The notes under the pieces were generated by a model. It did no database searches. It saw only the letters and a list, made by a program, of their open reading frames with translations, and had not been told where the DNA came from. From positions 288,001 to 352,000 of the forward strand of contig CBDFIQ010000001.1 of the NCBI GenBank assembly GCA_965248195.1: a stretch of 64,000 nt of DNA, in the 5' to 3' direction. Both the position numbers and the translations under genes were made by a program. This stretch comes from Longimicrobiales bacterium. Its GTDB lineage: Bacteria; Gemmatimonadota; Gemmatimonadetes; Longimicrobiales; Gaopeijiaceae. Shown here in pieces: positions 41,088 through 53,340 of this stretch (within the stretch, counting starts at the first letter, position 1; each line of letters opens with the position of its first letter).

Positions 41088-42332
41088 ATGAACGTGAAGG
41101 TGCCCAGGAACCGTATGGTAGTCGCTGCCGTGGCGGTGAGCTTGGTCGTAGTGGGCTGTGAGTCAGGCGGTACGGGCGATGCCCCAGGCACTGCGGGAAC
41201 GCCCGGGACGCAGGGCACCGGGAACTACCCTCCTGATGCGTCCGGACCGCAGGTACCGGCCGGCGTGGCGCAATTCGCAGTAGACCCGTTCTGGCCGCAG
41301 CCACTGCCGGATAACTGGATCTTGGGGCAGGTCGCCGGCCAGTCCGTGGACAATGACGACAACGTGTGGATCATCCACCGGCCTTGGAGTGCCCAGGCTA
41401 TGAACGCAGGCTCCACCCCACTGCAAACGACGCGTGATCAGACCTGGGGCCACGATCCTCTCTTGAGCCTTTGCTGCGTCACCGCCCCACCGGTCATCGC
41501 GTTCGACCCGCAGGGGAAAGTCATTCACGCGTGGGGTGGCGACAGTCCCACCGGTGAGTATCAGTGGTTCAACGGTGAGCACGGGATTCACGTCGACCAC
41601 AACAACTTCGTGTGGGTCGCGGGAAATGGTGCGAATGACCACCACATGTTGAAGTTCACGAGGGACGGGGAATTCGTTCTTCAGATCGGGACGGTTGGGG
41701 AGAGCGAAGCGAGTAACGATCCGAACTCCCTCAACGGGGCCGCGGTCATGGAGGTGGACCCTGAGACGAACGAGATCTACGTGGCCGACGGTGGTCGCCT
41801 GGTCGTCTTTGACGCGGAGACGGGAGAGTTTCTCAGGCACTGGGGAGCCTATGGGCAGCCGCCCGTTGACGGGGACACAGGCCGCCCGAGCCCGCGGGAC
41901 CCCAACGCGCCGCCGAGCCGCACCTGGAGCCGGCCGGTGCATGGGATGGCGATCTCCGACGACGGGCTTGTATTTGTGGCAGACCGTCCCAACAACCGGA
42001 TTCAGGTTTTCCAGAAGGACGGGTCGTACGTGACCGAGACGGTCCTCCAACCGCAGACTTTCGGATTGGGATCGACGGACGGTGTGGAGTTGGATCCTTT
42101 GGATAGCGAGCGGCGGTTCATCTATGTTCCGGATGCGATGGACAACAAGATCTGGACCCTCGATCGCGAGACGCTGGAGGTGGTCTACTCCTGGGGGCGC
42201 GGGAGAATACAGCCCGGCCAGTTCGACTGGCTGCATTACATAGCCTTCGATTCCCAAGGAAATATGTATACCGGCGAAGTGCAGACCGGGCATCGGATCC
42301 AGAAGTTCGTGCGGCTCAACGGGGCACCATGA
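41088..42332 (+). CDS. NHL-repeat beta-propeller lipoprotein (PAL-like)
   Basis: VVGC lipobox; DPFWPQPLP..WILG, EHGIHVD, VHGMAIS..VADRPNNRIQVF, LHYIAFD. Confidence 0.85.
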   Translation: MNVKVPRNRMVVAAVAVSLVVVGCESGGTGDAPGTAGTPGTQGTGNYPPDASGPQVPAGVAQFAVDPFWPQPLPDNWILGQVAGQSVDNDDNVWIIHRPWSAQAMNAGSTPLQTTRDQTWGHDPLLSLCCVTAPPVIAFDPQGKVIHAWGGDSPTGEYQWFNGEHGIHVDHNNFVWVAGNGANDHHMLKFTRDGEFVLQIGTVGESEASNDPNSLNGAAVMEVDPETNEIYVADGGRLVVFDAETGEFLRHWGAYGQPPVDGDTGRPSPRDPNAPPSRTWSRPVHGMAISDDGLVFVADRPNNRIQVFQKDGSYVTETVLQPQTFGLGSTDGVELDPLDSERRFIYVPDAMDNKIWTLDRETLEVVYSWGRGRIQPGQFDWLHYIAFDSQGNMYTGEVQTGHRIQKFVRLNGAP

Positions 42333-42415
42333 CCGCCAAAGGCCTCGCGTTCATGGCCAACCGGTGACCCGCTACAGGAAATCCGCGGAATCGGACCCGA
42401 TTGGCGGCAACGCGC

Positions 42416-42445
42416 TTGACATCCCTCAGCGCCCGCTTCTACGTT
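42416..42445 (+). promoter_or_regulatory. candidate sigma70 promoter of DUF1592 operon copy 3
   Basis: TTGACA-N18-TACGTT, about 60 bp upstream of ATG 42507. Confidence 0.55.
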
Positions 42446-42506
42446 GCTTATTGCTTAAGGTTCAGAATCGACGGGCTCCGTAGAGGGTGCCTGTCTAGGA
42501 GGCAGA

Positions 42507-45098
42507 ATGCGGTTCATCAGGCCGATCGGCCGACAGATGTCAAGGAACCGCTCGCGAGCTGGATACGCGTCGAGCTACGCGCTCCTGCTGAGCACTGGGA
42601 TCGTGGGAGCGTTCCTGTGGGGTGCCGACGGATCGCTCCGGCAGGCGCAACCGGCCCAGACGCAATTGGTGCCCGCTCCCGGGCTCGATGTCGTCCAGCC
42701 GGGACTCCATCAGCAGAATCAGCAGGCGATTGATGTTCAGGCGGTCCTGGACACATACTGCGTCGTCTGTCATAACCCGAGACGAGGCACTGCCACCTTC
42801 GCGTTCGACACGCTGGACGCGTCGCGCCCGGGCACCCATCCCGCAACGTGGGAGAAGGTGGTTACGAAGCTTCGGACGGGCACGATGCCACCTGGCGGGA
42901 GGCGGCGGCCCGATCCGGAGACGTATGCGGCCGTGGCTGGCTGGTTGGAGACGGAGCTCGACGCCGCGTGGGCGGCCGATCCGTATCCAGGCAGGATCAA
43001 CGCGCTCCACCGCTTGAACCGCACCGAATACAACAACGCCATTCGCGACCTGTTGGCGCTCGATATCGATGTGAGAGAGCTGTTGCCCGGGGACGAGACG
43101 GCGGACGGCAGCTTCGACAACATCGCAGCGTCCCTCACGATTTCCACGGCCCATTTGGAACGATACGTATCGGTGGCCCGTCAGGTCACGCGTCTGGCGA
43201 CGGGCCTGCCCCCGGTAGGGGCGGATTTCAAGATCTTTCGAGTCGACGAGCTCCTGAAACAGACTGATCTGATGGGCGAAGATCTGCCGCTGGGATCTCG
43301 CGGTGGCATGGCCGTCCGCCATCAATTCCCGGCCGATGGTGAGTACCTCATCAAGGTCAACCTGACAGCGAATTATGCGGACTACCTCAAGGGGATGGGG
43401 TGGCCGCAAGAGATCGAGTTTCGCGTCGATGGCGAGCTGATGGGCCGGTTTACAGCGGGAGGGGAGGCCTTGGAATTCCGACCCGCCCCTGCCAGCTACG
43501 AAGGCGCCGGTCAGCCTGGGTTCGAGGGCGACTGGGAGTGGGAAGCGTACATGCAGGGCGCGGCGGACGATCACTTGGAGGTTCGCACCTTCATCACGGG
43601 CGGACCCCATGTCGTCGGAGTCGCATTCCCCATGTACATGTGGGAGCCGGAGGCCCTCCTCCCGCAACCGCCGCTGCGGGAGTGGGGGAAGACGTTGAAG
43701 GATGACGCCAGGTACATGGACTATCAGGGCGTGAACGATCTCATGATCGAAGGCCCCTACCAGATCTCCGAATCGACGGGCGATTCTCCCAGTCGTCGGG
43801 AGATCTTCGTCTGTAAGCCGGAGGCCGAAACGGAGGAGCCGGCCTGCGCTGCGAGAATTATCGAGCGGATGGCCCGGCGCGCCTTTCGGCGACCGGTCAC
43901 GGGCGAGGACCTCCAGAAGTTGATGGAGTTCTTCGATCAGGGTAGGCAGGATGGGCAGAGCTTCGACGCCGGCATTCAGTTCGCCCTCGAGCGGATGCTG
44001 GTCGACCCGGCTTTTCTGCTCCGTGTTTATCGGGATCCGCCGTCGCAGGCCACCCCCGACCCCTATCGCCTCAGCGACCTGGAGGTCGCCTCGCGGCTGT
44101 CTTTCTTCCTGTGGAGCAGCATTCCCGACACAACCCTGCTCGACCTGGCGGAGCAGGGGAGGCTTTCGGATCCCCCTGTTCTGAGACAGCAGGTGCTGCG
44201 AATGTTGGCTGATCCACGAGCCGCAGATGCGCTGACGCAGGGTTTCGCCAGCCAGTGGCTGAATTTGCGCGTCCTCGCCGACAAGGTAGCCGATGAGGAC
44301 CTATATCCTGTGTTCGACCACAATCTGCTGGAGGCGATGCGGCTCGAGACCGAAATGTTCGTCACCAGCACGATCAGCGAGGACCGGAGCGTCCTCGACC
44401 TCTTGAGGGCGGACTACACGTTCGTCAACGAACGGCTGGCACGCCATTACGGTATTCCCGACGTCTACGGCAGCCGCATGCGGCGGGTCACCCTCCCCAA
44501 CCTCCAGGAGCGCGGCGGATTGCTCGGGCAAGGCGCGCTGTTGGCGCTCACGTCGTATCCAAACCGGACGTCGCCCGTTCTGCGAGGCAAATGGCTGCTT
44601 GATAACATTCTGGGTACGCCCGTGCCGGCGCCCCCGGCTAGTGTAAACACCGATATCGAGGACGAGAGGTTTTCTCCAACCGCAACCATACGCGAGCGCA
44701 TGGAATCACACCGGACCGATCCCGTGTGCGCCACGTGCCATTCGGTCATGGATCCGCTCGGTTTCGCGCTGGAGAGCTTCGATGCCGTTGGGGCTTGGCG
44801 GACCAGAGACGAAAAAGGCCATCCGGTCGATGATTCCGGCGTCTGGCCGAGCGGTGCGGAGTTGGATGGATTTGCGGGTCTGCGCGCGATGTTGCTGGAT
44901 CAGAGCGACCAGTTCGTCAACACGGTGACCGCAAAGCTCATGACTTACGCTCTGGGGCGCAGACTCGAGTACTACGATCGGCCCGTGGTGCGCAGGATTG
45001 TGAGCGACGCGGAGGCGGACGAATACCGCTGGTCCTCGGTCATTGTCGGAATTGTCGAGAGTCCTGGCTTCTTGATGCGGGCACGCTTGACGCAATAA
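42507..45098 (+). CDS. DUF1592-family diheme cytochrome c protein, copy 3 (divergent)
   Basis: CVVCH and CATCH; RLNRTEY, ASRLSFFLWSS, RTSPVLRGKW, LMTYALGR. Confidence 0.92.
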   Translation: MRFIRPIGRQMSRNRSRAGYASSYALLLSTGIVGAFLWGADGSLRQAQPAQTQLVPAPGLDVVQPGLHQQNQQAIDVQAVLDTYCVVCHNPRRGTATFAFDTLDASRPGTHPATWEKVVTKLRTGTMPPGGRRRPDPETYAAVAGWLETELDAAWAADPYPGRINALHRLNRTEYNNAIRDLLALDIDVRELLPGDETADGSFDNIAASLTISTAHLERYVSVARQVTRLATGLPPVGADFKIFRVDELLKQTDLMGEDLPLGSRGGMAVRHQFPADGEYLIKVNLTANYADYLKGMGWPQEIEFRVDGELMGRFTAGGEALEFRPAPASYEGAGQPGFEGDWEWEAYMQGAADDHLEVRTFITGGPHVVGVAFPMYMWEPEALLPQPPLREWGKTLKDDARYMDYQGVNDLMIEGPYQISESTGDSPSRREIFVCKPEAETEEPACAARIIERMARRAFRRPVTGEDLQKLMEFFDQGRQDGQSFDAGIQFALERMLVDPAFLLRVYRDPPSQATPDPYRLSDLEVASRLSFFLWSSIPDTTLLDLAEQGRLSDPPVLRQQVLRMLADPRAADALTQGFASQWLNLRVLADKVADEDLYPVFDHNLLEAMRLETEMFVTSTISEDRSVLDLLRADYTFVNERLARHYGIPDVYGSRMRRVTLPNLQERGGLLGQGALLALTSYPNRTSPVLRGKWLLDNILGTPVPAPPASVNTDIEDERFSPTATIRERMESHRTDPVCATCHSVMDPLGFALESFDAVGAWRTRDEKGHPVDDSGVWPSGAELDGFAGLRAMLLDQSDQFVNTVTAKLMTYALGRRLEYYDRPVVRRIVSDAEADEYRWSSVIVGIVESPGFLMRARLTQ

Positions 45099-45135
45099 GC
45101 GATCAACCGGTTCCATGGCATAGGAGATGAGAGGA

Positions 45136-46479
45136 ATGACATTCATCATTGGGAAACCACTATCTCGTCGGACTGTCCTGCGGGGCGTCGGAGCGGCGTT
45201 GTCGTTGCCATTCCTGGAAGCCATGTCGCCAACCAGGTTCGGTCTGCGCGGGCAGGTCCCCGCCAAGCCCACACATCGGTTTCAGACGATCTATGTGCCG
45301 AACGGGATGGCCATGGAGTACTGGACCCCACAGGAAGTGGGAAGGCACTTCGAGCTTTCACCCGTCTTGGAACCGATGGCGCCGTTCAAGGACCAGATGT
45401 TGGTGCTCTCCGGCCTCGATGGGACCTGGCCCGCCAACCACGCCGGGGCATCGGGGTCGTTCCTGACGGGCACGACACGTGGGGGGCGGAACAATACCGA
45501 AACTTTGGCGGACGTCTCGATCGACCAGTTGCTGGCGAGGGAATTCGGACGGGAGACGCAGGTCGCGTCACTCGAGCTTTCGATGGACAAACCGGCCAAC
45601 GCGGGGGTTTGCGATCTCACCCTGAATTGTGTCTACACGCATACCCTTTCGTGGCGTAGCCCCACGCAGCCGTTGCCGATGGAGTCCAACCCGCGGGCGG
45701 TGTTCGAGCGGCTGTTCGGCGACAGCGGCAGCACGGAGCGGGGGGCGCGGGAAAGGCGGCTGCGACAGCAACGGAGCATCCTGGACTCGGTGAGGGATGA
45801 GGTGGCGGCTCTCAAGAGGGAGCTTGGGCCGCAGGACAACCTGAAGATCGATGAATATGCAGAGGCGGTCCGTGACGTCGAACGGCGCATTCAAAAGGCC
45901 GAGGAACAGATCGACCTCGAGCTGCCGTTCTTCGATGCGCCCCAAGGCGCCCCGACTTCGTATGAGGAGCACATGGAGCTGATGTTCGACTTGCAGCTCC
46001 TGGCCTTCCAGGCTGACCTGACGCGGGTCAGCTCATTCATGCTCGGCAAGGAACAGAGCGCTCGACCGTACCCGCAGATCGGCGTGCCCGACGCGCACCA
46101 CCCGCTGTCGCACCACAACAACGTCCCCGAGCTGATCGAGCGAATGTCGAAGATCAACCGGTATCACATCGAGTTGGTCTCCCGGTATTTAGGGAAGCTT
46201 CGCGAGACGCCCGATGGTGATGGCTCGCTTCTGGACCACATGACGATCCTGTATGGGGCCGGCATTTCCAACAGCACGCGGCATTCGTCCCTGGACCTGC
46301 CCGTGATGTTGCTCGGCGGCGGGAGCGGACGCCTCGACGGCGGCCGGCATCTCAGCTATACCGACTCACCCGTGTTGGCGAACCTGCACGTCACCCTGCT
46401 GGACAAGCTCCACATGCCGCTCGATCGGTTCGGGGGCAGCACCGGCCGACTCGAGATCGATACGCTGGCCGAGTTGTAG
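45136..46479 (+). CDS. DUF1552 (HxxSHH) protein, copy 3
   Basis: LSRRTVLRG..LPFLEAM; GVCDLTLNCVY; HHPLSHH. Confidence 0.92.
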   Translation: MTFIIGKPLSRRTVLRGVGAALSLPFLEAMSPTRFGLRGQVPAKPTHRFQTIYVPNGMAMEYWTPQEVGRHFELSPVLEPMAPFKDQMLVLSGLDGTWPANHAGASGSFLTGTTRGGRNNTETLADVSIDQLLAREFGRETQVASLELSMDKPANAGVCDLTLNCVYTHTLSWRSPTQPLPMESNPRAVFERLFGDSGSTERGARERRLRQQRSILDSVRDEVAALKRELGPQDNLKIDEYAEAVRDVERRIQKAEEQIDLELPFFDAPQGAPTSYEEHMELMFDLQLLAFQADLTRVSSFMLGKEQSARPYPQIGVPDAHHPLSHHNNVPELIERMSKINRYHIELVSRYLGKLRETPDGDGSLLDHMTILYGAGISNSTRHSSLDLPVMLLGGGSGRLDGGRHLSYTDSPVLANLHVTLLDKLHMPLDRFGGSTGRLEIDTLAEL

Positions 46480-46484
46480 GGACT

Positions 46485-47969
46485 ATGTGGATGACACCCA
46501 GGCGGTCATGCCTGACCTTACTCGGGCTGGCTCTGATCCTCATCGGGGCCGATGGGAGTGATCACCCGCTGGTCGACGCGGCGAAGAACGGTGACAGGGT
46601 CGCGCTGCAGACGCTCTTGAACGAAGGAGCCGACGTCAACGCGCAAACGGCTGACGGTTCCACCGCTCTCCTCTGGGCGAGTTACAGGGACGATCTCGAG
46701 AGCGCAGAGCTCCTGATTCGCGCCGGCGCTGACGTGAACATCGGCAATGATCTCGGCGCAACGCCGATCTGGGCTGCGAGCCGAAACGGCAGCGCGGCCA
46801 TGGCCGACGAGTTGTTGGCGGCGGGAGCAGATCCCGACGCGCCGCTGTTGCTCGGCGAGACGCCGCTCGTCACGGCCTCTCGCTCGGGTAACCCCGAGGT
46901 CGTCAGGATGCTGCTCGAGAAGGGCGCCGACGTGAACGCCCGTGGGGCCCGCGGCCAGACGCCACTCATGTTCTCGGCGGCGCAGCGACACCCGGACGTC
47001 GTGAGGGTCTTGCTGGAGCACGGTGCGGACGTTCATGCCGTATCGGATTCCTGGAGCCAGTTGATGGCCCAGAGCCCGCATTCTCACCCCGAGCATCAGG
47101 CCTGGGTCCAGCATGGGGGCAACACCGCGCTGATGTTCGCCGCTCGGGTGGGCGATCTCGAGTCCGCAAAGCGCCTCGTGGCCGCCGGCGCCGACGTGGA
47201 CGCACCATCCGCCTGGGGCTCCACGCCGTTGGCCATCGCGACGTACGCCGACTTTGGAGAACAGTTCCTGATCCGGGAGCAGACCACCAGGCAGCTGGTA
47301 TACTTCGATCGCGATCAGATCCTCCCTGGGCAATTCGGCGAATTCGTAGAGTTTCTGCTCGAGCGGGGCGCCGACCCGAACGCGGGAGCCCACCGCTTCA
47401 CCCCGCTGATCGCCGCGGTCCTGCGTCAGAACGAGAAGACAGTGGAGCTCCTCCTTGCCCACGGCGCGGATCCCGATCTCCTGCTCGGGGATTTCACGCC
47501 GCACCAACGCGGATCGACCACGGATTTCTATCTTCACAAGTCATGGGTGGGAGCCACTCCACTCTGGCTTGCTGCGCGTTTCAGCACCCCGCCAATCGTG
47601 CGCCGCCTGCTGGAGCACGGAGCCGATCCGTTGTTCGTGCATCACGGCGTGTACTACGGTGGGGGTCAGGGCGGCGTTCTGTCTCCACGACAGGAGGAGA
47701 TTACCACGACTCTGATGGCAGCGGTCAAGATGGGTACCGGGAGGGCGTGGACTGTGGTGGAGGCTGATGAGGCGAGGGTGCTGGACACCGTCAAGCTGCT
47801 GGTGGAGGCTGGTGTCGATCTTGATGCCGTCGGCAATGCACGAAATCGGGGCGTAGGTGGAGCGACCACGGCACTCGAGGCCGCGATCATCCTGGAGTAC
47901 GACTCGGTCGTGGAGTTTCTCGTCGGGGAGGGCGCCGTCACGGCGGCTGCGCCCGGTTCCTTTCGGTGA
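46485..47969 (+). CDS. secreted ankyrin-repeat protein, copy 3 (no terminal CxxC)
   Basis: GSTALLWAS, GATPIWAAS, GQTPLMFSA, GNTALMFAA repeats. Confidence 0.92.
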   Translation: MWMTPRRSCLTLLGLALILIGADGSDHPLVDAAKNGDRVALQTLLNEGADVNAQTADGSTALLWASYRDDLESAELLIRAGADVNIGNDLGATPIWAASRNGSAAMADELLAAGADPDAPLLLGETPLVTASRSGNPEVVRMLLEKGADVNARGARGQTPLMFSAAQRHPDVVRVLLEHGADVHAVSDSWSQLMAQSPHSHPEHQAWVQHGGNTALMFAARVGDLESAKRLVAAGADVDAPSAWGSTPLAIATYADFGEQFLIREQTTRQLVYFDRDQILPGQFGEFVEFLLERGADPNAGAHRFTPLIAAVLRQNEKTVELLLAHGADPDLLLGDFTPHQRGSTTDFYLHKSWVGATPLWLAARFSTPPIVRRLLEHGADPLFVHHGVYYGGGQGGVLSPRQEEITTTLMAAVKMGTGRAWTVVEADEARVLDTVKLLVEAGVDLDAVGNARNRGVGGATTALEAAIILEYDSVVEFLVGEGAVTAAAPGSFR

Positions 47970-48916
47970 GGCCTGTCGGCGGCAAGCCCCAGTGGTTGAT
48001 ATCTCTTGGCTTGGTCGTTCTGTGTGGAGTAAGCTCTGCGCGAGCTGAGAGCACCGAAGCGCCCGCGGATGATGCGGCCCAGGATCAAGCGTCCGGCGGC
48101 GGCTATCAGATGGTCGAGGATTGGATTACCGGGCCGGAAGACATCGGCGGAGTGTCCGGGGTAACCACCGATGATGAAGGTAACATCTACGCATTCAGGC
48201 GCGACGCCAACAATGTCTGGAACCTCGATCCGGCGGGTAAGCTGGTGAAGGAGTGGGGCCAGGACATCGCCATGTGGACGCATGCCATCCGCGTCGACCA
48301 CGAAGGATTTATTTGGACCATCGACGGGCAGGGCCATCAGGTCAAGAAGTGGAGCGCTGACGCGAGCAAGCTCCTGATGACCCTCGGCAGCTACGACGTT
48401 GCCGGGGACGGACCCGACACGTTCAACCGGCCTACCGATGTGGCTGTCGCTCCGAACGGCGATTTCTTCGTGTCGGATGGGTATGTCAACACGAGAGTGG
48501 CCAAGTTCGACAGGACCGGTCGGTTCATCAAGGACTGGGGCGGGGCGGGCACGGAACCGGGCCAGTTCAACACGGTCCACAGCCTCACCATCGACTCGCG
48601 GAGTCGGGTGTTAGTAGCCGATCGCGAGAATAGCCGGGTGCAGATTTTCGATCTTGAGGGCAATTTTTTGGACCAGTGGACCCACCTGGGTACCCCCTAC
48701 GCTTTGTTCCTCACCCAGGATGACCGGCTCTTTGTCGCTGATGGCGTCAACGCCAAAGTGTGGATCGCCGACGCCGGCGACGGGACGCTCCTGGGTACGA
48801 TCGAGGGAACAGAAGGCATCCATTGGGTCGCCGTGGACCCGGCTGGGAATGTCTATGCCGCCTCGAACCGAAGCCACTATTTGAGGAAGTACTCGAAAGT
48901 GGGGGCGACGCACTGA
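47966..48916 (+). CDS. peptidyl-alpha-hydroxyglycine alpha-amidating lyase (PAL)-like NHL protein
   Basis: WTHAI, DGYVNTRV, TVHSL, ADREN, GIHWV; signal peptide; GTGA overlap with ankyrin copy 3. Confidence 0.85.
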   Translation: MRPVGGKPQWLISLGLVVLCGVSSARAESTEAPADDAAQDQASGGGYQMVEDWITGPEDIGGVSGVTTDDEGNIYAFRRDANNVWNLDPAGKLVKEWGQDIAMWTHAIRVDHEGFIWTIDGQGHQVKKWSADASKLLMTLGSYDVAGDGPDTFNRPTDVAVAPNGDFFVSDGYVNTRVAKFDRTGRFIKDWGGAGTEPGQFNTVHSLTIDSRSRVLVADRENSRVQIFDLEGNFLDQWTHLGTPYALFLTQDDRLFVADGVNAKVWIADAGDGTLLGTIEGTEGIHWVAVDPAGNVYAASNRSHYLRKYSKVGATH

Positions 48917-48958
48917 CAGCTGTCGCATGCGGCAGCGACCGCTGAGTGCAACAGCCTA

Positions 48959-49001
48959 CGGAGCGTACGTACGATCACACCTCAAACGTACGTACGCCCC
49001 G
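48959..49001. terminator. imperfect 17-bp inverted repeat between convergent NHL genes
   Basis: CGGAGCGTACGTACGAT-N9-AACGTACGTACGCCCCG (2 mismatches); no U tract. Confidence 0.55.
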
Positions 49002-49023
49002 CACAGAAGCGTAACGTGCGAAC

Positions 49024-50073
49024 CTACGGACGCACCCGCATGTACTTTCGGAGTTGCCGCGGCCGAGGTTCCCCTCCGTACATGTTACCGTCGCGATCCA
49101 CCGCGACGAACTCCGCCCCGTTCCCCGCGGTGTCACGGGGATCCGCCCAGGGGAAGCGGATGAACTCGGTCACCCAACCCGTCTCGATCTCCCCGATCCG
49201 AATCCCCATTTCCCAGCCCGGGTTCTGCACGTCGTCGGATTCGGAGTCTGCCACGTAGATCAGCCCGTTACTGTCGAATGCAATTCCGCTGGGGCGCCCG
49301 AATTGGGTCCAGGTGGCGATGTGATTCCCCTGCTGGTCGAAAATCTGGATGCGGCTGTTGCTCCGATCTCCCACGAAGACCCGCCCGCTCGGGTCGATGT
49401 CGATGGCGTGGAGCGAACGGAACTCGCCTGGGCCGTACCCGGTCTGTCCCCAGGACATCAGGAACTCCCCGCGGCGGTTGAACTTTACCACACGGTTGTT
49501 GCCGTTGCCGTGGCCGTCCGCGACGAAGATGTCCCCGTTTTCCGCAATGGCGACGTCGCTCGGGGAGGTAAAGTGATTCCGGCCACCACCCTCCTCTCCA
49601 CCCGTGCCCAGGATCATGAGCACCTCGCCGCGCCCGCTGAACTTGATGACCCGGTGGCCCCGGTCGTCACCTTCGGGAATGTTCCCCGAGCCCACGCCGT
49701 CCGTGACCCACACATTGCCGTCAGAATCTACGTCGATCCCGTGCGGCCAGATGAACAACCCGCCTCCGAAGCTCTCCACCATGTTGCCGTCGGGATCGAA
49801 TTTGAGGACCGGGTCTAGATCGGAGTCGCGGCACTCGTCTCCGAACCTTTCAGCCCCCGCATCGCAGCGGACGACCGCCCAGACATGCCTCCCATCCGGA
49901 TCGATGGTGGCCTTGCCCACAGCGCCCATCTCCCTTCCACCCGGCAGCTTCGCCCAGCCGTCGACTATTGCGTACCGATTCGATGAGTTCTGAGCGACGG
50001 CCTGTTCGGTCGAAGCAATCAGAGTGATGCCGAGCAACGCGGCAATCCACATAACGGATCTAGGAATCGACAT
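49024..50073 (-). CDS. PAL-like NHL-repeat protein, secreted
   Basis: WPHGI, DGHGNGNNRVVKF, SLHAI, GDRSNSRIQIFD, FGRPSGI; RBS GAGAGGTG. Confidence 0.88.
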   Translation of the reverse strand: MSIPRSVMWIAALLGITLIASTEQAVAQNSSNRYAIVDGWAKLPGGREMGAVGKATIDPDGRHVWAVVRCDAGAERFGDECRDSDLDPVLKFDPDGNMVESFGGGLFIWPHGIDVDSDGNVWVTDGVGSGNIPEGDDRGHRVIKFSGRGEVLMILGTGGEEGGGRNHFTSPSDVAIAENGDIFVADGHGNGNNRVVKFNRRGEFLMSWGQTGYGPGEFRSLHAIDIDPSGRVFVGDRSNSRIQIFDQQGNHIATWTQFGRPSGIAFDSNGLIYVADSESDDVQNPGWEMGIRIGEIETGWVTEFIRFPWADPRDTAGNGAEFVAVDRDGNMYGGEPRPRQLRKYMRVRP

Positions 50074-50273
50074 GATGTCACCTCTCACTTCGGCGTGGTC
50101 CAAGGGACCCTGGTAAGGAGCGTCTAAACGCGTCGGTGTCACGCGCGCGCAAGAGAAGCCCCGCAGGACTCCTCGCTAGGGGGAACCGTACGCGCCGGGG
50201 TTTTCCGGGGCAAGGGTAGAAGGGGTGGGAGCCGAGGTATTCGCGCAGAGCCGTCGCCACGATAGCTTGATGA

Positions 50274-51113
50274 ATGCCCATTCCCATTCGTGAGCGCGGC
50301 TACCGTCATCCGGAGCTCCTGACGGAGACCGTTTGGCTCGCCGGTCACCTGTCCGATCCGACGGTTCGCGTCGTCGATGCTCGGTCTGACGAGGACTACG
50401 CTCGCGACCACGTTCCCGGTGCCGTTCACCTTGATGGCTACACCCTCGGCGGCCTGCGCACAGGGTCCGCGATGCCAGAGCCCGAGGCCTTCGCTCACCT
50501 GGTCGGGGAGCTTGGAATCGACGAGCACACAAAGGTCGTCGTCTACGACGCGGGCGGGCCACCGACGGCGGGAATCGTCGTCTGGGCGTTCCTCTATTAC
50601 GGCCATCCCGATTCCTCTTTGCTCGATGGTGGGTTGACGAAGTGGACCGCCGAGGGGCTATCACTTTCCAACGACGCCCCGGCCCACGAACCCAAGACGT
50701 TCGCAGCTCGCCTAGCAGGGGGCGTCTACTGCTCCCTGGACCAGGCCAAGGCCGCCGTCGATGACGACGGCGTCGTCTTCTGGGACGTGCGCGGCGTCGG
50801 CGAGTTCGAGGGGACGAAGAAGGGGTGGAATGCTCCGCCCCGGCTCGGGCACCTGCCGGGGGCCATCCACTTGGAGTGGGCCGAGCTTTTCGATTCTGAC
50901 AACGGGACGTTGAAGCCTGCCGCCGAGCTCACCACGCTCCTCGGGGCCAAGGGGATCACACCGCAAGCCAAGGTCGTTTCCTACTGAGGAGGCGGTGCGC
51001 GGGCGGGTCTCGCGGCGGTTGTCCTGAAGATCCTGGGTTACGCCCGGGCATCGAACTACGCCGGATCCTTTAACGAATGGGCCAATCAGCCTGACACCGA
51101 AGTGGAGCGCTGA
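50274..51113 (+). CDS. two-domain rhodanese/sulfurtransferase, probable selenoprotein (Sec at codon 238, TGA 50985-50987)
   Basis: HVPGA, VVVYD, LDGG..KW, GHLPGA; the frame continues past TGA as VVSY-U-GGGARAG...LGY...NYAGSFNEW to a TGA at 51111-51113. Confidence 0.88.
50988..51024 (+). promoter_or_regulatory. putative bacterial SECIS hairpin
   Basis: Upper stem CGCGGG/CTCGCG (50998-51014) with loop CGGGT starting 17 nt after the UGA; imperfect lower stem GGA...TCC; folded by eye. Confidence 0.6.
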
Positions 51114-51186
51114 CGCAAAACAGCGATGGCCGGAGGCGATCCCACCCCCGGCCACCCCGACCCCGCTGGTATACCTAGCTTGGACG

Positions 51187-51844: not shown

Positions 51845-53219
51845 GGTAGTGTCCCTAGATTTGTGTAAAAGCGGATAAGCTGGACAGGAGGGAAAGAAAA
51901 ACGGAAGCTCCTCTGTTGTTGTTCACTGTCACATGAACCCGGGAGTCCGGGTCTGCAGAGCAGGCTCGGAACCGGAGAGGAGCTTCCGATGCAAGAGATT
52001 GTGGAGATCGGTCGGGCCACGCAAGACGAGCTACGCGATGATTTGCGCGAGCTGTTTCAAGGCGCGATCCGGCTGACGCTCGAGATGGTGCTGGAAGAGG
52101 AGCTGAAGGCCATGGTAGGTGCACGCCGCTTCGAGCGGGTGGGAAGCCGGAAGGACCATAGGAACGGCACATACCTGAGGCGGCTGCTGACGAGCCTGGG
52201 GCAGATCGAGGTCGCCATGCCCCGGAGCCGGGACAACGGTTCGCCGGCCGACGTGATCGGCCGCTACCAGCGCAGGAGCCCCGAGCTCGACGAGATGATG
52301 GTCGAGGCGTATGTGAGCGGCGTGTCACAGCGCAAGATGGGCGACGTCACCGAGGCGCTGATGGGCGAGCGTGTTGGGCGCTCGACGGTGAGTCGTGTGG
52401 CAAAACGGCTCGACGAGGCCGTGGAAGGCTGCGCCGTGCGCCGATCGAGGGGCCTCACCCCTATCTGTACCTGGACGCCACGTTCTTGGACGCCCGCTGG
52501 GCCCGCAAAGTCGAGAACGTGAGTGCGCTCGTGGCGTATGCAGTGGGCCCTGAGGGTCACCGACGGCTCCTGGCCGTCACGCTGGGCGCTGAGGAGTCGC
52601 AGCAGAGCTGGTCGGAGCTCCTCGAGCAACTCCAGGACCGCGGCCTCGGCGGTGTCGAGCTCGTGATCGCCGATGAGCACGCAGGCCTGGCAGCTGCGGT
52701 CCGCCGCTTCCTGCCCGAGGCACGCCGTCAGAGGTGTACGGTCCATCTGCAGCGTAATGTGGGGGCGAGGGTCCCCCACCGCCTACGCAAGCGCGTGGCG
52801 CGTGAGGTCTCGGTGATCTTCCAGACATCCGGACTCGCCGAGGCGAAGAAGCTCCTGGGCGAGTTCGGCGCACGCTGGAAGAAGGAGCTGCCCGAGGCCG
52901 TGGAGGTCCTGGAGCGGGGCTTCGGGGCAGCGACGCAGTTCTACGCGTTCCCCGAGGCGCACTGGCCCCGGCTGCGTACCACCAACAGCCTCGAGCGGCT
53001 GCACGGCGAGATCAAACGCAGGATCAAGGCCGCCGGCGCCTTCCCGGACCGGGCCAGCGCCCTCAGGCTCATCACGGCCGTCGCACTCAGGACCACACAC
53101 GTCTGGGGCGACCGGCGTTACCTCGACCTCTCACTCCTCCAGAAACAGGAGGTCGCCCAAGCAGCCTAGCCGAAGGCGAGGAGCTTCCTCCGCTTTTACA
53201 CACAAATCGGGACTTGACC
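51845..53219 (+). mobile_element. IS256-family insertion sequence (1375 bp)
   Basis: Imperfect terminal IRs GGTAGTGTCCCTAGATTTGTGTAAAAGCGGA / revcomp GGTCAAGTCCCGATTTGTGTGTAAAAGCGGA; 9-bp direct repeat AATCGGGAG at 51836-51844 and 53220-53228. Confidence 0.95.
51989..53169 (+). pseudogene. IS256 (Mutator-family) DDE transposase, frameshifted at ~52427
   Basis: RNGTY.R.L.T, YVSGVS.R, then shifted frame YLYLDA, IADEHAGL, QRCTVH, RTTNSLER; one base missing in GAA GG CTG. Confidence 0.9.
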
Positions 53220-53340
53220 AATCGGGAGCCCACTCGCAGAGGGTCGAAGCTCTAATAGAAGATTAGGAAGCCACAGGGCCCTGGGGCCAGAAGTTTTTTT
53301 TGGGGGGAATTTTGGGAGGAAGAGGTAGCGGCGGAGGCTC

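Follow-up and report, generated by a model that had tools for sequence, protein, structure and literature searches.

A tandem-domain rhodanese with a predicted selenocysteine at its catalytic site in a genome of the Longimicrobiales

The closest described relative of the gene reported here is a selenocysteine (Sec)-containing 'Rhodanese-related sulfurtransferase' (COG2897/SseA), which was predicted from the Sargasso Sea in 2005 (PMC1088965), was also reported from GOS (PMC2398784) and Olavius symbionts (PMC1976440), and stands in review tables as 'rhodanese-like form 4' with the motif UxxG (PMC13188914, Table 1; the entry is also in PMC9312934). The rhodanese rows of the first of these reviews cite prediction papers, with no assay noted there. 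In the literature we searched, most subscription journals lying outside it, neither an assay or biochemical study of a Sec rhodanese nor a paper on the selenoproteins of SAR202 was found. A preliminary description of the locus, made from its letters alone, had called Sec rhodanese-like proteins predicted and poorly characterised; predicted they have been since 2005, and going by the review tables they form a catalogued family rather than a loosely predicted one.

The gene described here adds a member to this predicted kind and is not a new kind of system. It shares with the published family the two-domain SseA-type build, Sec at the position of the catalytic cysteine, the motif UxxG (here U-G-G-G), a SECIS element just downstream and an occurrence among marine bacteria. 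The match to form 4 is one of motif and family description, not of the sequences MQG53192.1 and MCY3690685.1, neither of which is among the cluster members listed; the subfamily of our gene is defined by U-[GQH]GGAR at about 45-90% identity. The COG2897 assignment was made from SseA-type matches, and no NCBIfam selenoprotein model covers the protein.

The gene lies in a window of 64,000 nucleotides (the whole stretch of DNA that was analysed) of contig CBDFIQ010000001.1, from an assembly of 4.86 Mb in 2 contigs that is 91.8% complete. As the preliminary description had noticed, the open reading frame at 50274-50987 on the plus strand encodes 237 residues and stops at a TGA after VVSY, beyond which the frame runs on through another 41 sense codons to a TGA at 51111-51113. 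The in-frame TGA at 50985-50987 is thereby codon 238 of a 279-residue protein, with the following features:

50274..51113, plus strand: full gene, a 279-residue tandem-domain rhodanese (sulfurtransferase) with predicted Sec238 (translation, Pfam, structure alignments, AlphaFold, Foldseek)
50547..50549, plus strand: Asp92 (VVVYDAGG), at the catalytic-residue place of the inactive N-terminal rhodanese domain, a role we presume from tandem rhodaneses in general (near-invariant in the alignment)
50730..50732, plus strand: Cys153 (YCSL), the second conserved cysteine (invariance in aligned homologues)
50985..50987, plus strand: in-frame UGA at the catalytic-cysteine position, predicted Sec238 (TGA/Cys pairing in homologues)
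50985..51002, plus strand: active-site loop of six residues, U-G-G-G-A-R, with loop-end Arg243 (translation, structure alignments)
51048..51080, plus strand: C-terminal rhodanese signature ASNYAGSFNEW, present on read-through only (short regex pattern, alignments)

Several observations indicate that the part beyond the TGA belongs to the protein. The Pfam Rhodanese score rises from 86.3 bits for the truncated product to 120.1 bits for the read-through protein, and the C-terminal signature of rhodaneses, written as a short regex, matches the read-through protein only. By such patterns the 237-residue product is devoid of the catalytic residue, the active-site loop and the C-terminal signature, whereas the read-through protein has what marks a tandem-domain rhodanese of the COG2897/SseA type: two domains, the catalytic residue in the C-terminal one, and both signatures. 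The preliminary description had placed the UGA exactly at the catalytic cysteine, and indeed it aligns with the Cys of the loops CQTHHR (PDB 1e0c), CRIAER (1uar) and CRIGER (8k55). A single-sequence structure prediction reached a pLDDT of 36 and was set aside; the AlphaFold model of the read-through protein made from the alignment has a pLDDT of 92.9, and its best Foldseek match is 1e0c (TM 0.86). Compared with A. vinelandii RhdA (1e0c) and the Thermus rhodanese (1uar), the protein has the same fold (TM 0.86-0.87, 34% identity), a six-residue loop that ends in Arg and the same C-terminal signature; it differs from them in having Sec for Cys and an uncharged loop, UGGGAR, in place of CQTHHR and CRIAER, and 1e0c has no equivalent of Cys153. 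With E. coli SseA (NF008557) it shares the two-domain fold and differs in lacking the CGSGVT loop of E. coli SseA-type 3-mercaptopyruvate sulfurtransferases. Residues C/U238, G241 and R243 are invariant in 38 aligned proteins.

The homologues carry either TGA or Cys at the site in every set that we compared, which is the pairing that the preliminary description had proposed to look for. Among 30 genome loci of 42-86% identity (records labelled Deltaproteobacteria and Myxococcales, Gemmatimonadota, Acidobacteriota, Chloroflexota and Binatia), the equivalent of codon 238 is TGA in 26 and TGC in 4. Metagenome loci, of which 80 were kept from 112 and 79 could be mapped, hold 61 TGA and 18 Cys codons. 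Within the class of one Dehalococcoidia host, 155 of 251 genomes gave a strong match, one of the genomes in the tally being flagged as unpublished; a single TGA interrupts many of these matches, and the 30 loci fetched from this search have TGA (27) or TGC (3) at the same codon. At the protein level, 103 of the best 120 of 417 clusters end at the preceding Tyr, 16 are full-length with Cys and 1 is a fragment; nine further representatives of 50% clusters, which share 37-42% identity, likewise stop immediately ahead of the site, and the nearest 90% cluster has 11 sequences, the window's own included, of which 10 terminate at that Tyr. On the homologues compared, neither a nonsense mutation nor a sequencing error can account for this pattern. 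The gene is real, and gene callers routinely cut it short; the UGA at 50985-50987 is almost certainly a genuine Sec codon at the catalytic site. Variants are listed at 50984 and 50990 and none at 50985-50987 among the 40 listed of 287 differences, which come from assembled contigs.

The source genome encodes Sec machinery, in agreement with the earlier expectation that selA, selB, selC and selD would lie elsewhere in it. All four were found: selA scores 524 bits, selB has winged-helix domains, selC is a tRNA-Sec(UCA) gene, and selD itself has an in-frame TGA (HGAG-U-ACK). Of the candidates from a crude genome-wide scan for UGA read-through, 12 were examined. Six belong to known selenoprotein families, namely two formate dehydrogenase alpha subunits, an OsmC-like protein, an AhpC/TSA protein with UxxC, a DUF3179 protein and an ArsM-like methyltransferase; the other six are unsupported, being ordinary genes that end at or start after the TGA, or family-less. 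With selD, the likely Sec codons from the scan and candidate inspection are:

G000:C2:2783465 and C2:1603136: the two formate dehydrogenase alpha subunits (FdhA)
G000:C1:691320: SelD
G000:C1:8018: OsmC-like protein
G000:C2:481813, minus strand: AhpC/TSA protein, UxxC
G000:C2:3336645: DUF3179 protein
G000:C2:2501274: ArsM-like methyltransferase

Two related family-less frames (G000:C1:384333 and C2:555292, both minus strand) have good coding scores on either side of a TGA after VEES; this pair probably represents adjacent genes in one frame, not Sec. A weak tRNA-Sec model match of 106 nt (G000:C2:1579976-1580081; 41 bits, below the cut-off) lies 4.3 kb from the true selC and drew no ARAGORN call. 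Among the hosts of the 30 genome loci, selA is present in 30 of 30 and selB in 27, and the four hosts of Cys forms have both; the selA count is less surprising because the gene is common in the source's own family (72 of 100 genomes).

Two explanations dispense with Sec altogether. A nonsense pseudogene or sequencing error, by which TGC became TGA in a genome under a heavy insertion-sequence load, would be in keeping with its 103 near-identical IS256 copies and with the upstream frame breaks found in 4 of the 30 homologous genome loci. Yet homologues of five phyla, some as low as 37% in identity, have the same TGA, the 41 codons beyond it are conserved while varying synonymously, and the nearest cluster ends at the same Tyr in ten of its eleven sequences; the TGA at the same codon in genome, metagenome and Dehalococcoidia-class loci refutes this reading, and we regard it as very improbable. 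Scarcely credible is a genome-wide reassignment of UGA to Trp, Gly or Cys, or read-through by another route, for which the in-frame TGA itself is the sole support: tRNA-Sec is the only tRNA with a UCA anticodon found in the genome, the gene itself terminates in TGA, at a place where TAG, TAA and TGA all occur in homologues, and homologues have Cys at the site and never Trp or Gly. The tRNA set and the gene's own TGA stop thus exclude genome-wide reassignment.

The SECIS of E. coli fdhF is an in-frame hairpin that starts 11 nt after the UGA and bears a G in its apical loop. The preliminary description had pointed to a hairpin 11 nt downstream of the rhodanese UGA with a G-rich loop containing GGTCT, as in fdhF. 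The position stands, since the stem does begin at 50998, 11 nt after the TGA; the loop does not, for the loop that covaries is CGGGU, with one conserved G:

50998..51014, plus strand: predicted bacterial SECIS, a 6-bp stem of 50998-51003 with 51009-51014 and a 5-nt loop at 51004-51008, CGGGU (RNAalifold consensus, covariation, frozen synonymous sites)

Two registers compete here: register A, in which nucleotides 11-16 after the UGA pair with 22-27 to give CGCGGG-CGGGU-CUCGCG, and register B, GCG-GGUCU-CGC. For 57 close genes, register A has 2 compensatory pairs, both from one divergent lineage, and register B has none. In a set of 52 genes (29 of the 57 close ones plus 23 distant Dehalococcoidia-class genes), RNAalifold returns register A as the consensus, with 91% of cells paired as against 24-60% for slid registers, and with double changes in 4 of 6 pairs (61 such cells, a count that related sequences inflate, the compensatory changes coming from few lineages). 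The G at nucleotide 18 after the UGA (51005) is invariant in the 52 genes, and of 68 four-fold-degenerate sites across 23 full-length TGA genes, the three that are invariant are those of codons +4, +6 and +8 after the UGA. Register B, 95% paired in close relatives without covariation, falls to 84% with the distant genes, which is chance level (393 of 500 shuffles as high), and was rejected. The likeness of its loop to fdhF did not survive either, GGT at codon +7 occurring in only 38 of 69 distinct TGA genes. Thus the window hairpin resembles the fdhF SECIS in being in-frame, in starting 11 nt after the UGA and in having a G in the apical loop, and differs from it in that GGUCU is unconserved among the rhodaneses, where the loop on the covarying stem is CGGGU in our gene and, for most relatives, a triloop of GGC/GUC. 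For some of the close relatives register B gives the better fold, and one fdhA of the source genome has a GGUCU loop at nucleotides 19-23 after its UGA.

Folding energy was considered as proof of a SECIS in the window copy and discarded, being no better than chance. Dinucleotide-shuffle tests, with windows starting one base into the TGA or later, gave z from +0.55 to +1.67 in three of four windows and -1.08 in the fourth; the hairpin, at -8.4 kcal/mol, has a z of +0.56 against synonymous recodings, for which the mean z is -1.25 in TGA genes (n=57) and -0.13 in Cys genes (n=20). The evidence for the hairpin, as far as sequences can give it, is therefore its conservation and covariation, not its stability. 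The constraints reported for bacterial SECIS elements are a loop of 3-9 nt, a stem of 4-16 bp, a G in the first two loop positions, a spacing of 16-37 nt and an MFE of at most -7.5 kcal/mol (PMC13188914). Checked by hand, the hairpin lies within them (5-nt loop, 6 bp, G in second place, 16 nt from UGA to loop, -8.4 kcal/mol), marginally so on spacing and energy; an Rfam search of the window returned no match. Given the codon, the machinery and the conserved covarying hairpin, all of which are observed, we infer that the UGA is actually recoded: the in-frame hairpin, which spans nucleotides 11-27 after the codon and has its apical G at nucleotide 18, would bring SelB with Sec-tRNA(Sec) to it.

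At codon +6, just past the active-site loop (Ala244), 66 of 69 distinct TGA genes encode Ala (GCG), and all 20 of the subfamily's 20 Cys genes encode Gly; Ala is retained by one Cys gene of greater distance. The Dehalococcoidia-class sample is very rich in sister Sec-rhodanese subfamilies (L168-L194), with U-QGGIRAAH, U-QGGGRAAH or U-QAGIR, and the hairpin is the same in 23 of 23 of their distinct genes, its triloop being GGC/GUC.

What would the enzyme do? Judging by its fold and loop, it is most likely a ping-pong sulfurtransferase, in which the Sec238 selenolate would attack a sulfane-sulfur donor (thiosulfate, polysulfide or persulfide) held by the loop-end Arg243 and by Arg173, forming an enzyme Se-SH intermediate from which sulfur would be passed to a thiol, sulfite or cyanide acceptor. 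For yeast RDL2, the transfer of sulfane sulfur reportedly depends critically on a loop-end Arg (PMC8533005). Sulfur transfer is the probable main job of the Sec238 rhodanese, though by no means an assured one, and the Sec sulfur or selenium transferase envisaged in the preliminary description gains support from a genome with Sec machinery and homologues with TGA. The best NCBIfam match, NF008557 (3-mercaptopyruvate sulfurtransferase), scores 125.5 bits against a cut-off of 250. No conserved neighbours pointing to a substrate were found in the marine clade.

A genuine selenoprotein might instead deal with selenium or with toxic oxyanions, its task being to bind, reduce or hand on Se and not to transfer sulfur. 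In vitro, selenium can be loaded onto Cys rhodaneses (PMC9369223), soil relatives lie near genes for chromate transporters (26 loci in that cluster), glyoxalase-family proteins (12 loci) and multicopper oxidases (10 loci), there is a weak match to ExtH (NF040901), the rhodanese of a selenite/tellurite operon, which at 49.2 bits lies below the cut-off of 200 and comes without the ext operon context, and selA is present even where the rhodanese is a Cys form. We nevertheless hold this role to be rather unlikely: the transporter context is confined to the soil clade, some of the links being to reading frames on either strand, and no sel gene is found among the recurrent neighbours or near the rhodanese in the source genome. 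Alternatively, Sec238 could be the reducing residue of a thiol-type oxidoreductase, with persulfides, disulfides or peroxides as substrates and a selenenylsulfide to Cys153 as the recycling step. Most characterised selenoproteins are described as redox enzymes (PMC13188914), and Cys153 is invariant in the 38 aligned proteins, present by pattern in all of the best 120 of 417 clusters and in 21 of the 30 Dehalococcoidia-class loci, and replaced by Ala in 1e0c. Cys153 is, however, also kept in Cys forms and missing from the other 9 of the 30 loci, all of them Sec forms, and the topology of rhodaneses would put it about two strands from residue 238; we find this alternative unlikely. A broader proposal, improbable as a whole, is that of an old, widely distributed selenoenzyme clade, frequent in Dehalococcoidia, whose genes moved from phylum to phylum together with their SECIS. 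It would have undergone at least four reversions from Sec to Cys in Sec-making hosts, would have its Ala244 dictated by the SECIS, and would be a persulfide/polysulfide reductase working with Sec238 and Cys153 rather than a classical rhodanese. Taken separately, the reversions to Cys are quite probable and a new reductase chemistry is not likely. The natural Sec/Cys pairs of 73-81% identity (the window protein against P0003 and P0006) make the role of selenium in sulfur transfer directly testable.

The distribution of the gene is patchy. Of 301 genomes in the host's order 2 have the subfamily, and in 100 genomes of the host's family it was not found at more than 39% identity; yet the rhodanese shares 71-86% identity with genes in records of four phyla and has homologues across five. 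This combination of rarity in the order and high cross-phylum identity suggests repeated horizontal transfer, with bin contamination as a possible contributor. The window gene's own subclade contains two named records, both Gemmatimonadota.

For the history of the Sec site, a quick tree was built from 51 rows (37 of 89 rows plus 14 Dehalococcoidia-class loci) after removal of the Sec column and ten SECIS-coded columns. Five Sec/Cys changes are required by its starred branches, four groups of Cys genes falling within a Sec-bearing clade, and the AU test rejects trees that gather all Sec genes (p 6e-7) or all Cys genes (p 8e-8) in one clade; it does not separate placement of the four closest Cys genes inside the marine Sec group from placement beside it (p 0.20). 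Because the Sec genes share one homologous hairpin, the simplest reading is that Sec was gained once and reverted to Cys several times, which depends on a weakly supported root. A change from Sec to Cys has been called rare in bacteria by a 2026 review (PMC13188914), and the repeated Sec/Cys switches seen here bear on that statement. Hundreds of database entries for this protein are truncated and catalytically dead (103 of the best 120 clusters), and the sulfur-transfer capacity of marine and soil bacteria is mis-annotated as a result.

In the window the rhodanese gene is solitary: its two neighbours, an NHL-repeat gene and a reading frame that lacks annotation, are both on the minus strand, and an IS256 element is nearby. 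Upstream, at 41088-50142, lie a cluster of NHL beta-propeller genes, a gene with PSD/cytochrome domains, a DUF1552 gene and an ankyrin-repeat gene. Searches of the window for tRNA genes and sigma-70-type promoters returned none. Just after the stop lies one further element:

51125..51156, no strand assigned: 14-bp GC-rich hairpin with a T-tail on the minus strand

This hairpin probably terminates the convergent gene, and perhaps both genes. The window copy does not have the GGAG ribosome-binding site found before the starts of most close relatives; at 50263-50274 there is no Shine-Dalgarno sequence, an in-frame stop directly precedes the ATG, and TAGCTT stands 5 nt before it. Among 1108 starts of the genome the leaderless TANNNT motif peaks at 6 nt before the ATG (26, as against 9 at 5 nt). 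A leaderless start is thus possible on sequence grounds, and expression of the gene is uncertain because GGAG is missing and TAGCTT sits one position off the genomic peak. A related contig skips 53 nt in the 50263-50274 region. An RNA library was tried as evidence of expression and put aside; pieces of relatives in it cover the gene and not its flanks, which does not show expression.

The IS256-family element, at about 51900-53220, has 103 near-full-length copies in the genome, at least 99.4% identical and 100 of them with an open transposase frame, which marks a very recent burst; the copy in the window misses one G and is frameshifted. It was dismissed as a vehicle of transfer, given the 103 copies in the genome and a locus (L122) that has the rhodanese and the downstream gene with an empty site; by this comparison of loci, the nearby IS256 arrived after the rhodanese gene.

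The source genome also has three Cys two-domain rhodaneses, so the Sec rhodanese is an addition to them. Two of the three, with loops CRSGMR and CQSGVR, flank a Sulf_transp (YeeE/YedE-type) sulfur-transport gene (L211:1404-4741; G000:C2 at about 2575.9-2579.2 kb), a locus that is likely a thiosulfate uptake unit. In the soil clade (L084, L130-L164) the rhodanese, Sec or Cys, is often near chromate-transporter, glyoxalase-family and multicopper oxidase genes. Elsewhere in the source genome, 17 tRNA genes lie on one strand in an array of about 2.2 kb (G000:C1:1071378-1073597).
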